Positions 2,761-40,186 of a stretch of DNA of 42,085 bases are shown here, piece after piece; the first letter of the stretch is position 1; every line of letters starts with the position of its first letter. This DNA is from Okamejei kenojei. Taxonomy: Eukaryota. The stretch spans positions 9,693,916 to 9,736,000 of the forward strand of contig CM069169.1 of assembly GCA_035221665.1 (NCBI GenBank). Reading direction: 5' to 3'. The translations under genes were made by a program, and so were the position numbers. Under the pieces are notes generated by a model that saw only the letters and a program-made list of their open reading frames with translations, was not told where the DNA came from and made no database searches.

Positions 2761-3096
2761 TGAAAATACCATTTCCTTTCAACTTGACTGCCATTCTCCC
2801 AATGCATCTCCCGGCTACAAAGTTCCACACCTGTGCACCTTTAAAAATCTTTGGTTCTTATTTGCGCTATATTACTGAGAACAAGAAAATCAAGTCAAGA
2901 GTCTCGGTTACTACCTGCAGGACATTGATATTCTTAGTTGCTGCAGCTTAACAGACCAGCTAACACAATAATGCACAAGATCCAAGAACAGGTTTGCAAA
3001 CACATTAATAATACATTAATAACATGGTGATCAATATGACTGTCAATTAATAAAAGTAATATAAGGTAACCATAAAAAGTAATACAAGGCAGCTTT

Positions 3097-3348
3097 GTCA
3101 AAGCTGCCACAGCCAGACGTAAAAACAGCTTTTTTCCACGAGTAGTAGCTCTATTCAATAACCAAAAATCTGTAGCCTCCTTTTGCTCTGGTATTTTTTT
3201 ATTTAATTCACATGTTTAATCGATAATGTTTTATTATTAATGTTTTATTTGTCATTCTTAATTGTCATTATGTCGTGTTGTCACATTTGCGAGCGGAGCG
3301 CCATGGCAAATTCCTTGTATGTGAACACACTTGGCCAATAAACGTATT
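3097..3348 (+). mobile_element. Rex1/Babar-type LINE 3' end
   Basis: VKAATARRKNSFFPRVVALFN C-terminal motif, then tail caaattccttgtatgtg...ggccaataaac. Confidence 0.7.
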
Positions 3349-6164: not shown

Positions 6165-6362
6165 TGATAGACGCAAAGTGCTGGAGTAATCCAGCGGGAC
6201 AGGCAGCATCTCTGGAGAGAAGGAATGGGTGGCATTTTGGATCGAGACCCTTCCTCAGACTCGACCCAAAACGTCACCCATTCCTTCTCTCCAGAGATGC
6301 TGCCTGTCACTCCAGCATTTTATGTCTATCTTCGATGTAAACCAGCACCTGCTTCCTATGCG
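6165..6362. mobile_element. PLE inverted terminal pair
   Basis: aggcagcatctctggagagaaggaatgggtg / cacccattccttctctccagagatgctgcct. Confidence 0.8.
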
Positions 6363-9521: not shown

Positions 9522-9547
9522 GGGCCTCATTGCTTATAGCATGAGCG

Positions 9548-9685
9548 CTTCTTCTTGCGTATGGCGTGCACAGCCTAAAGTTGTAGGACAACTTGTTCTA
9601 TTTGATCTTACTTGTTTGTGCACGCCAGGTTGATTGCATTCGTCGAAACAGGGCGGACCACGTGAAGGTTACAATCTTCCACCCC
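9548..9685 (-). mobile_element. Short non-autonomous retroelement with 5' HDV-like ribozyme, structured 3' half and (GAA)n tail
   Basis: TSD agcatgagc (9538-9546 / 9687-9695); minus strand starts GGGGUGG and ends ...gcaagaagaag; second copy at 33682-33804. Confidence 0.85.
9632..9685 (-). ncRNA. Minimal HDV-like self-cleaving ribozyme (54 nt, predicted)
   Basis: GGGGUGG(P1) AA GAUUGUA(P2) ACC(P3) UUCACGU(L3) GGU(P3') CCGCCCU(P1') GU UUCG A CGAA(J4/2) UGCAAUC(P2'); G1.U wobble, C22-G38 P1.1, catalytic C position all present. Confidence 0.85.
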
Positions 9686-28195: not shown

Positions 28196-28408
28196 CAAGA
28201 AGGAACTGCAGATGCTGGAAAATCAAAGGTCGACAAAAATGCTGGAGAAACTCAGCGGGTGAGGCAGCATCTATGGATGGAAGGAAATAGGCAATGTTTC
28301 AGGCCGAAACCCTTCTTCAGACTGATCAGTTTGAAACGTTGCCTATTTCCTTCGCTCCATAGATGCTGCCGCACCCGCTGAGTTTCTCCAGCATTTTTGT
28401 CTATCTTT
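28196..28408. mobile_element. PLE inverted terminal pair
   Basis: UUCG variant in both orientations; flanked by tttgtt(c/t)atttaatt. Confidence 0.8.
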
Positions 28409-33364: not shown

Positions 33365-33945
33365 AGATATCATAGAGCCATACAGCATGGAAACAGGCCC
33401 GTCGGCTCAACTTGCCCCATCTACACTAGTGTTTAAGAAGGAACTGCAGATGCTGGAAAATCGAAGGTAGACAAAAGTGCTGGAGAAACTCAGCGGGTGC
33501 AGCAGCATCTATGGAGCGAAGGAAATAGGCAACGTTTCGGCTCGAAACGTTGCCTATTTCCTTCGCTCCATAGATGCTGCTGCATCCGCTGAGTTTCTCC
33601 ATCTACACTAGTCTCACCTGCCTGCGTTTGGCCCGTATCCCTATAAACCTATCCTATCCATGTACCTGTCCAAATGTTTTTCTTCTTCTTCTTGCGTACG
33701 ACGTGCACAGCCTAAAGTTGTAGGACAACTTGTTCTATTTGATTGTGCACGCCAGGTTGATTGCATTCGTCGAAACAGTGAAGGTTGCAATCTTCCACCA
33801 CCCCAAATGTTTTTTAAACATTGTGATAGGACGCGCCTCCTCTGGCAGCTCATTCCATATACCTATCACCTTTGTATGTTAAAAAAAAAAGTTGCCCCTC
33901 AGGATCCTGTCTTTCCTCCCTCACCTCAAACCTATGTCTTCTCTA
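33365..33945 (-). mobile_element. CR1 3' end hosting a PLE inverted pair (33431-33598) and the ribozyme-headed element
   Basis: PLE TSD ccatctacactagt (33417-33430 / 33599-33612). Confidence 0.8.
33682..33804 (-). mobile_element. Second copy of the ribozyme-headed (GAA)n element; ribozyme disrupted
   Basis: Near-identical to 9548-9685; TSD aaatgttttt (33672-33681 / 33805-33814); ~11-nt deletion removes P3' and most of P1'; inserted into a CR1 3' end. Confidence 0.85.
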
Positions 33946-36983: not shown

Positions 36984-37362
36984 GTGTTTAAGAAGGAACT
37001 GCAGATGCTGGAAAAATCTGAAGAAGGGTCTCGACCCGAAACGTCAGCTTTTCCTTCGCTTCATAGATGCTGCCTCACCCGCTGAGTATCTACCTCTTGA
37101 TCCAAGTGGTCTTGTAATGGATCACCACATTCATAACAAAAATAATTGGTCATAGACACAAAATGCTGGAGTAACTCAGCGGGACAGGCAGCATCTCTGG
37201 AGAGAAGGAATGGGTGACATTTCGGGTCAAGTCTGAAGAAGGGTCTCGACCCGAAATGTCACCCATTCCTTCCCTCCAGAGATACTGCCTGTCCCGCTGA
37301 GTTACTCCAGCATTTTGTGCCTATCTTCAGTTTAAACCAGCATCTGCAGTTCCTTGCTACAC
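36984..37362. mobile_element. Two PLE inverted pairs (~36984-37093; ~37152-37362)
   Basis: Flanking duplications tctt(c/g)atccaagtg and aataattggt. Confidence 0.8.
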
Positions 37363-38960: not shown

Positions 38961-39810
38961 CTACTGCAGTTTATACCATGGGAATATGATACATGGTCCC
39001 TGAATGGGTGCTTTGTATATTTTACCATTTTCAAGCACCAATTTATATTCGACCGGGATTATTCAAATCTGTTTTCTCTTGCAGAGAATTGATCTCTTGT
39101 GTTTGTGCCGAAAAGCAATGACAGAAAATATCTGACTTATTTAATGAAGCCAAGATGGCCTTCTAAATTAATAGAGGACAGGGAGAGGAATCTTCTATCT
39201 TGGAGGCAAATGTTTTTATTTGACTGCAGAAAGCAGTCAGCAGTTAGGCAGACCCTTTGTTATAGTCCTTGCAATGTCCTCAAACAATTGGCCTCTTGTT
39301 ATGAATTAGTCCAGATTAGATTTCTTTGTAGACCAAATCATCACTCCCGGCACCAAAATAAAATGATTTATCAAGTAATGCACGCTAGATGCCCATCGTG
39401 GGTTTGTAAAACTTGCTGGGTTTTGAATGACCTCGAAATTAAAGGAAAAGGAGCAAACGCTGAAAGCGGACAATGTAACTAGTCAAAATGAACCCTTGGA
39501 CTCAAGACACGTCAAGTCAAGAGAGTTTATTGTCATGTGTCCCAGATAGGACAATGAAATTCTTGCATTGCTGCAGCACGACAGAATATTGTAGTCATAA
39601 ATACAGATAAAAATAAAATATACACGCACACACATAAATACACAGATAAAGTGCAATAGGTTGTTATAGTTCATAGTTTGTTTGAAGTTGTGTTTAATAG
39701 CTGATGGCTGTGGGGAAGCAGCTATTCCTGAACCTGGATGTTTCAGATTTCAGGCTCCTGTACCTTCTACCTGATGGCAGCGGAGAGATGAGTGTGTGGC
39801 CAGGATTTTT

Positions 39811-39975
39811 TTAAATTTTTATGGCAATCTGTTCGATGATGTTGAGCTTGGCGGTGGTCAGGCCTTCAACATTGAGCTGCAGTAGCGCTAAACCTCGACA
39901 GTTGGCGGCATTTAACGGTGCAGCCTGGCCTGGGGAGGCATGGCTTTTAGCGGTCTGCAGACGCGGTAAAGACAT
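39811..39975 (-). pseudogene. Truncated 54-aa ORF: N-terminus of a retrotransposon AP-endonuclease
   Basis: MSLPRLQTAKSHASPGQAAPLNAANCRGLALLQLNVEGLTTAKLNIIEQIAIKI*; LLQLNVEGL..K resembles the first APE motif; below the length cutoff of the ORF track. Confidence 0.65.
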
Positions 39976-40052
39976 TGGTTTCGCTTTGTGGGCTTATGAG
40001 CCTGTAAGCTACTCGTGGAGGAGGCCGCGTAGAGGCTGTCTTTGTCTCCTCC
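39968..40052 (-). ncRNA. HDV-like ribozyme (85 nt, predicted)
   Basis: GGAGGAG(P1) AC AAAGACA(P2) GCC(P3) UCUACGC(L3) GGC CUCCUCC(P1') A(P1.1 with U22) ...GCUUA/UAAGC hairpin in P4 region... CCAA(J4/2) UGUCUUU(P2'); +1 G abuts the TSD. Confidence 0.85.
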
Positions 40053-40186
40053 GGCCAGGATGGTGTGGGTCCTCGATGATGCTGGCAGCCTTTTTGAGGC
40101 AGCGACTGTGATAGATCCCCTTGATGGTAGGGAGGTCAGAGCCGATGATGCACTGGGCAGTGTTTACAACTTTTACAGGCACCACA

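Follow-up and report, generated by a model that had tools for sequence, protein, structure and literature searches.

Second-priming sites cluster just behind a predicted 5' HDV-like ribozyme in inverted copies of a Vingi-type LINE from Okamejei kenojei

In a Vingi-type LINE of the Okamejei kenojei genome, most 5'-intact inverted insertions carry a second cDNA that was primed just behind a predicted HDV-like ribozyme at the element 5' end, far from the point where the first cDNA stopped. Among 30 such inversions, the gap between the two cDNAs exceeds 300 nt in 25; 24 of these 25 are primed at element nt 94-282, 12 of them at nt 215-245. The clustering of large-gap inversions behind the ribozyme suggests, by analogy with R2, that the ribozyme-bearing 5' RNA domain is held at the integration site, so that DNA ends prime just behind it, a reading that we consider probable. 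The window (the whole 42,085-nt stretch analyzed, contig CM069169.1, positions 9,693,916 to 9,736,000 of assembly GCA_035221665.1) contains a dead fragment of this family, which is a by-product of the LINE.

A 5'-intact copy in the window

Positions 40052-39807 of the window (minus strand) correspond to nt 1-237 of a 3.16-kb single-ORF LINE with APE and RT, followed by 9 nt of filler. The target-site duplication (TSD), ATCCTGGCC, is found at 40061-40053 and 39806-39798. The features of the locus are as follows.

40053..40061, minus strand: 5' copy of the TSD, 9 bp, identified by comparison with uninterrupted sites in further copies of the target repeat
39968..40052, minus strand: predicted HDV-like ribozyme, element nt 1-85, by descriptor scan, covariation and a weak Rfam match
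40052-40046/40023-40017, minus strand: P1, 7 bp
40043-40037/39974-39968, minus strand: P2, 7 bp
40036-40034/40026-40024, minus strand: P3, 3 bp
40033-40027, minus strand: L3, UCUACGC
within 39968..40052, minus strand: P1.1, one pair, U22-A37
about 40014-39979, minus strand: P4, long
39978-39975, minus strand: J4/2, CCAA, with the predicted catalytic C at 39978
39973..39975, minus strand: AUG, formed by the final A of J4/2 together with the two nt that open P2'
39811..39975, minus strand: N-terminus of the APE endonuclease, an ORF remnant of 54 codons plus stop (TAA)
39816..39820, minus strand: 3' breakpoint, element nt 233-237, an A-run in the family priming hot spot (nt 215-245)
39807..39815, minus strand: non-element filler, 9 nt, separating the breakpoint from the TSD
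39798..39806, minus strand: 3' copy of the TSD, by empty-site comparison
39640..40170 (bounds approximate), minus strand: target repeat, older and abundant, which reads like the 3' end of another LINE

The initial annotation had described perfect P1, P2 and P3 helices on this strand, the L3 and J4/2 sequences with G1 at 40052, and an AUG across J4/2-P2' that opens 54 codons before a stop; all of these agree with the coordinates above. The 9-bp TSD that it proposed is genuine, as other copies of the target repeat carry the site once: nine of ten are continuous across the insertion site, and the exact 9-mer is found once in six. What it had taken for an A-rich tail consists of four As of the element itself (nt 234-237) and then the 9 nt of filler, the real family tail being (GAA)n. 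The filler supplies the final codons of the ORF remnant and its stop. Both ends of the copy fit, by eye, the pyrimidine/purine nick pattern and are compatible with a first or a second nick. The target repeat may be Rex1/Babar-like; a Pfam search of both its halves gave no match. Near-perfect long hairpin repeats are also present in the window (6189-6316, 28252-28381, 33487-33595, 37170-37305), with sub-threshold Rfam miRNA matches, and are most likely of MITE or SINE type.

The parent element

A search of the 2.76-Gb genome placed the 246-nt copy at at least 40 other sites at 90-96% identity (93 candidates). Long copies define an element of 3160 nt with precise 5' ends, TSDs of 10-13 nt and a (GAA)n tail about 20 nt past the stop codon. 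The single ORF opens with the ATG at nt 78 and extends as far as nt 3134, with one stop interrupting the frame in the majority sequence, and family copies contain Pfam APE and RVT_1 domains. No match to RNase H was found in the C-terminal 471 aa of one copy or in two intact relatives; the latter (1002 and 1019 aa, 73% and 67% identity) have the same domains. The 54-aa peptide of the window copy gave no Pfam match on its own and aligns from residue 1 to the intact 1019-aa APE-RT protein (25 of 51 residues identical), which supports the APE homology first suggested for it. The AUG is the start of the long ORF of the 3160-nt element.

The Ingi/Vingi-type parentage suggested earlier is likewise borne out by a single ORF with APE then RT, no RNase H and a length of ~3.16 kb. 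We use the clade name Vingi on the basis of this architecture, and the assignment is putative to that extent; none of 114 protein matches is a named Vingi or Ingi protein. Members of the Vingi clade (Vingi-1_EE, Vingi-1_Acar, Vingi-2_Gav) resemble the parent in being ~3.1 kb long, with one ORF encoding APE then RT, short UTRs and, in the descriptions drawn on here, no RNase H, and the clade also yields 5'+3' bipartite derivatives (PMC13708176, PMC5786205).

Family copies are ~5% diverged, and some have later insertions. A tandem duplication of element nt ~2431-2507 common to L005, L010, L197, L265 and L134 marks a subfamily. Two other Vingi-like families, with protein identities of ~48-50% and ~30-32%, are present in the genome, for example at C7:73335086-73335838, C9:48069093-48069872 and C4:54276974-54277726. 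Of the words sampled from one full copy, 33-38% occur in sequencing runs X1-X16 (DNA or unlabelled, nine organisms), which points to a near-identical family in several organisms; no RNA run is among those listed, which says nothing about expression.

The predicted ribozyme

A loose HDV descriptor applied to both strands of the 42 kb found only two sites, at 40052 and 9685. The fold at 40052 is a nested double pseudoknot in the HDV order (P1 of 7 bp, P2, P3 of 3 bp, L3). An Rfam scan of 141 nt placed HDV-F-prausnitzii (RF02682) exactly at 40052; its score of 21.6 bits (E 0.026) falls short of the gathering threshold (44 bits), and the relative L326 similarly reaches 32.9 of 35 bits on RF00622 (CPEB3). 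The scan of the whole window did not report the ribozyme at 40052 and gave only sub-threshold miRNA-hairpin matches to other repeats.

The predicted HDV-like fold is backed by covariation. Across 12 aligned sequences, 95% of cells are paired, as compared with 43-49% in slid alignments, and 14 of 18 pairs have changed on both sides; most of the 12 rows were chosen by the fold descriptor and trimmed to the helices, so these values somewhat overstate the support, P1.1 lying outside the filter. Throughout the family, P1.1 consists of one U-A pair next to a C-C mismatch, which is weaker than a two-pair P1.1; among the 12 sequences this pair is U-A in the window family and L315, C-G in nine and unpaired in one. 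The J4/2 pattern C-N-A-A before P2' is well conserved (C75 in 66, A77 in 69 and A78 in 70 of 70 copies), and relatives are alike. Sixteen of 50 metagenome-contig loci with sufficient upstream DNA pass the descriptor and fold at the same place, and the HDV-like fold was recognized by eye in L315, L306 and L294. MFE folding gave no stable boundary of the 5' domain, as two folds disagree.

Position 40052 is the family 5' end, as had been predicted: nt 1 is the first position in 30 of the 40 direct copies and in 16 of the 30 inverted ones (46/70), the remaining copies begin at nt 2-7, and no direct copy extends upstream in shared sequence. A start at G1 fits ribozyme cleavage, although a precise promoter start would give an identical picture; judging from the family as a whole, the RNA 5' end is probably produced by cleavage at the predicted ribozyme. 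In the sister clade, trypanosome L1Tc/ingi elements have an HDV-like ribozyme, Pr77 (L1TcRz), likewise in the first ~80 nt, which cleaves just before nt +1 and for which refolding has been proposed to serve translation (PMC3383444, PMC4035085). L1Tc differs in its RNase H and its demonstrated promoter activity, whereas the window family is known from sequence and has a start codon inside the predicted ribozyme. Six clades are given with a 5' ribozyme in the 2018 list of PMC5786205, Ingi present and Vingi absent among them; the ribozyme predicted here would extend a known kind to a clade not given one there. Our literature search found no Vingi ribozyme, no AUG inside one and no Vingi inversions; the founding Vingi paper (Kojima 2011), Ruminski 2011 and Repbase lay outside its coverage and may describe part of this.

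The printed 5' end of Vingi-2_Gav also shows an HDV-like fold by eye (PMC5786205 supplement). Nucleotides 2-74 of this gharial element agree, by eye, almost letter for letter with the mammalian CPEB3 ribozyme consensus (RF00622), except in P4. Ancient Vingi traces are present in the human genome (X12_LINE, PMC5753468), and the CPEB3 ribozyme may derive from the 5' terminus of an old Vingi copy, a derivation that the literature search did not find proposed. The second HDV-like ribozyme of the window heads a ~140-nt element (9546-9685, minus strand) with a TSD, an (AAG)n end and a short terminal motif common to the Vingi tail. It has 11 more matches in the sequence examined, one of them at window 33685-33799, and is likely an abundant non-autonomous partner of a Vingi-type LINE. 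One inverted copy of the family, L087 (C2:158597390-158601890), sits in the L3 loop of a ribozyme element of this type.

A start codon within the ribozyme

The AUG at nt 78 is the sole ATG in nt 1-80, opens the long ORF of the family, aligns with Met1 of an intact relative and is kept in 64 of 70 copies. Its frame is observed, and the ORF would start at this AUG spanning J4/2-P2'. In four of the six families looked at, the ribozyme contains an AUG in frame, namely at J4/2-P2' (the window family, L315, L298/L308) or in the 3' strand of P4 (L294/L326/L343). In L367 the AUG is out of frame, L305 starts ~30 nt downstream of the ribozyme, and the short HDV element at window 9685 has the same AUG.

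It can be speculated, though we hold it doubtful, that ribozyme folding and initiation at this AUG are mutually exclusive and form a switch between mRNA and template. The recurrence of the in-frame AUG within the ribozyme in several families argues for such gating, as do database relatives that start MS- or MT- or have K-[LP]-M-S in the corresponding position, the downstream-induced refolding that breaks P2 in L1Tc (PMC3383444), and one copy in which P2' and the AUG pair in an alternative long-range helix (z -2.3). However, folding of the family majority sequence gives a different helix, and Vingi-2_Gav, as printed, has no AUG at that place. The counter-reading is that the AUG is a harmless by-product of the ribozyme consensus, which a highly compact 5' end took into use. 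P2' is preceded by an almost invariant A, and A-U and C-G are the commonest forms of the two uppermost P2 pairs (7/12 each), so an AUG arises at J4/2-P2' by bias, and its position may be partly such a by-product. Because the ribozyme consensus favours A-U-G there and the 9685 element has one, gating is possible rather than established; the out-of-frame AUG of L367 and the downstream start of L305 also speak against it.

Distribution and structure of family copies

Candidates counted per 246-nt tile, as lower bounds, number 93 (nt 1-246), 49 (nt 400-645), 62 (nt 1000-1245), 239 (nt 2000-2245) and 951 (3' end). The family is thus 5'-truncated as usual, with about ten times more 3' than 5' ends; the counts are U-shaped, and what is anomalous is their increase at the 5' end. 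We classified 70 5'-intact copies into four groups: (i) 27 direct copies that reach the tail, (ii) 5 long copies without a tail, (iii) 8 solo 5' pieces, and (iv) 30 inverted copies. Four members of the first group are short 5'+3' copies, with junctions at 144/3117, 178/3107, 181/2338 and 238/3081. The solo pieces are 174-281 nt long, and a clear TSD was found in four of the eight (the window copy, L016, L026 and L061).

The initial annotation had proposed a short non-autonomous derivative with its own tail; this is not supported, as each short copy has separate breakpoints and the four bipartite copies have four junctions. An amplified short family with a poly(A) tail, or with a bipartite master, was also considered and rejected, the short copies having no common tail or junction. 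Compared with bipartite non-autonomous families of the RIME/NARTc/Vingi-N type, the window copy is without a 3' part.

L020 and L053 were rejected as short 5' pieces because their apparent breakpoints are later insertions; L020 is scored at nt 824 and L053 is excluded from the breakpoint counts. L263, with an ambiguous 12-nt inverted match, is uncounted. The pairs L055/L056, L068/L069, L235/L236 and L242/L243 resemble duplicated loci and are kept as separate entries. In contigs from four other sequencing runs mapped on a full copy, summed depth is higher over nt 1-208 than over nt 209-620, a measure by which parts of the element cannot be ranked. Among the joints listed from these contigs (15 of 40) are an opposite-strand joint at ~nt 134/2556 and joints of nt 88, 170 and 219 to the 3' part, which give a weak hint.

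Second priming in inverted copies

In the 30 inverted copies, which include L114 (199/199), the 3' part lies upstream, inverted and head-to-head with nt 1-6. A TSD of 10-14 nt encloses the whole inverted structure in 18 of 29 testable copies (L086 was excluded from this test for its short flank), as compared with 3 of 168 in a mismatched-flank control; no TSD above threshold was found in the other 11. These 18 sisters have the inverted-plus-direct arrangement, and the window copy itself is without the 3' piece. Microhomology of at least 2 nt occurs at 9 of 19 outer junctions without filler, where chance predicts 1 in 16.

The same combination of an inverted 5' piece, a direct 3' piece, a long TSD and outer-junction microhomology characterizes twin priming by human L1 (PMC2912911, PMC4245944), and by this analogy the inverted sister copies were presumably made by twin priming. 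The position of the second primer differs. In L1 it adjoins the first-strand stop near the 3' end, with a median deletion of 14.5 bp and breakpoints clustered at the 3' end (bioRxiv 10.1101/2024.08.27.596794), whereas most 5'-intact inversions here are primed in the 5' zone across a kilobase gap and run to the first nucleotides. Only 5 of the 30 are classical, with a gap below 300 nt, so that the L1-like closeness of priming site to first-strand stop is generally absent. The 15 large-gap inversions with a TSD are primed at nt 94-252 and have a median gap of 2585 nt. Six further inversions that are not 5'-anchored were found among mid-element copies, five of them classical and one (L118) a large-gap inversion from nt 1385. 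A classical inversion was also seen in a relative from another organism (L330). In PMC4245944, inversions in human cells were almost only those of L1, with none for an L2 and one for a Nimb element. Our literature search, whose coverage did not extend to Ostertag and Kazazian 2001, returned no report of the kilobase-gap, 5'-anchored pattern, which may represent a new variant of a known mechanism.

Ascertainment was controlled with a sample selected by the 3' end, comprising 99 of the first 100 of 434 exact matches to a 3'-end motif. It contains eight inversions, primed at nt 109, 112, 189, 189, 1410, 1826, 2811 and 2873. Four of the five large-gap inversions in it are primed at nt 109-189 (p ~0.002 against uniform priming, on five events, one of which, L266, is a 12-nt match), and three of these four stop at nt 92-132 and hence are invisible to a 5' search.

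First-strand stops do not distinguish large-gap inversions from ordinary truncated copies (medians 2764 and 2702, p 0.56). In both inverted and ordinary truncated copies, stops pile up at nt 3026-3030 (L084, L085, L087, L231, L235, L236, L261), which suggests an RT pause site. The inner junction falls at nt 4, without the first three G, in 9 of 30 inverted copies and in 2 of 40 direct copies; these junctions probably reflect microhomology joining of two cDNA ends. Within nt 28-340 the spread of breakpoints, mapped in this one family, is not clearly non-uniform (KS p 0.055).

Origin of the 5'-anchored inversions

We propose the following course of events. The HDV-like ribozyme (nt 1-85) would set the exact RNA 5' end by the cleavage predicted from its covarying fold, and the APE-RT protein would start at the AUG inside the last ribozyme helix, where the frame is observed. 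Integration normally begins at the (GAA)n tail and usually stops early, as the copies show. In ~4% of insertions, the other end of the target DNA would prime a second cDNA at nt ~90-280, that is, 1.4-2.8 kb upstream of the first-cDNA stop, with 0-4 nt of microhomology. The second cDNA would often reach nt 1-6 and be joined head-to-head to the first, leaving an inverted 5' piece and a large gap between TSDs. A protein complex would keep both the 5' RNA domain and the 3' end beside the target DNA, such that the open, A-rich stretch that first follows the 5' domain is what a free DNA end encounters. The window copy would be the limiting case: its priming in the A-run at nt 233-237 involved slippage or fill-in and left nt 237 as its last position, and it has no tail-primed partner; either the first nick was primed there or the tail-primed strand was lost. 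Template jumping into this zone could account for the short direct 5'+3' copies and may be a route to the bipartite non-autonomous elements of the clade.

For R2 there is biochemical proof that the protein binds both RNA ends (PMC6895275, PMC6765202); R2 is a site-specific RLE element, whereas the window family is an APE element known from genomic footprints. Counting against a 5' hold, second-strand cutting by R2Tg is independent of the 5' UTR (PMC12222951), five of the 30 inversions are classical, and L118 is a large-gap inversion primed mid-element. The earlier suggestion that the 5' structure may be the mobilization signal gains indirect support from the way in which second-priming sites gather behind the ribozyme, although priming normally still takes place at the 3' tail. 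The window copy also resembles the tailless retropseudogenes made by L1 in mammals and the anole, which are 5'-intact and 3'-truncated between TSDs and arise by internal priming at A-rich single-stranded sites (PMC5322556). Those, however, are host RNAs copied in trans, whereas here the LINE copies its own RNA, mostly with an inverted tail-primed half.

The strongest alternative, which we nevertheless think unlikely, is that the RNA is cut in the middle by small-RNA slicing or decay and trimmed, and that a ribozyme-protected 5' fragment of ~100-280 nt survives in the particle, on whose free 3' end the RT primes. This would account for the missing middle, for solo 5' copies with TSDs (4/8) and for filler, which in the window copy could have been appended as an oligo(U)/oligo(A) tail, and a protective role for uncapped RNA is ascribed to HDV-like ribozymes (PMC12222951). 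Filler, however, is found at a minority of junctions, and the outer-junction microhomology indicates annealing. For mammalian tailless retrocopies, internal priming was favoured over truncated RNAs (PMC5322556), and something must still keep the 5' fragment at the site.

Less probable still is an explanation without any tether, in which DNA primers ending in T meet the A-rich, unpaired nt 215-245 and general RNA compaction brings the ends near. Of the 29 breakpoints, 11 fall in bin 221-240, which has more A than any other bin in the first 400 nt (10 of 20 positions) and is one of the least paired, with a mean unpaired probability of 0.58, so sequence alone does contribute; TSDs end in T in 18 of 30 full-start direct copies. 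Yet bins 261-280 and 321-340 are equally open and nearly as A-rich and hold no breakpoints, and A-rich open sites are expected across the other 2.8 kb, where only three large-gap events (L020, L118, L204) were found.

That the pattern is an artefact of 5'-end ascertainment, or of inversions and deletions after insertion, is largely refuted and now very improbable. The first set was gathered with 5' queries, and the copies have had time to diverge and acquire insertions; however, the bias is also seen where no 5' query was used, in the 3'-selected sample and the tile counts, the rearranged structures lie within TSDs and have microhomology at the outer junction, and breakpoints are not exponentially distributed from the 5' end (KS p 0.003-0.01). 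Finally, a short non-autonomous family that keeps the 5' end and an A-tail and is mobilized by its 5' structure has precedents in the bipartite non-autonomous LINEs of Vingi, Ingi, RTE and R2 (PMC5786205) and could explain why several copies end at nt 235-241, but with dissimilar short copies, as described above, and no direct 5'-zone piece in the 3'-selected sample, we give it next to no credence.

Implications

Retention of the 5' RNA at the integration site, the reading preferred here, may be part of a larger, closed loop, which we put forward as a tentative idea. A Vingi-type protein would hold both the ribozyme domain (~nt 1-200, AUG included) and the 3' tail, with the 5' end serving the second nick. 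The same 85 nt would then set the 5' end, switch the RNA from mRNA to template and position second-strand joining, and mis-priming would produce kilobase-gap inversions, solo heads and bipartite SINE-like seeds.

With a priming hot spot immediately downstream of the ribozyme as its genomic footprint, a hold on both RNA ends becomes open to direct testing. The hot spot bears on how APE-type LINEs complete their 5' junction and on why only RTE, Ingi, Vingi and R2 give rise to 5'+3' bipartite parasites, a question posed in PMC5786205. Donor RNAs of Vingi-based gene writers carry the Vingi 5' UTR (PMC13708176), and the pattern described here predicts that some gene-writer insertions would have an inverted 5' piece and lack most of the payload.
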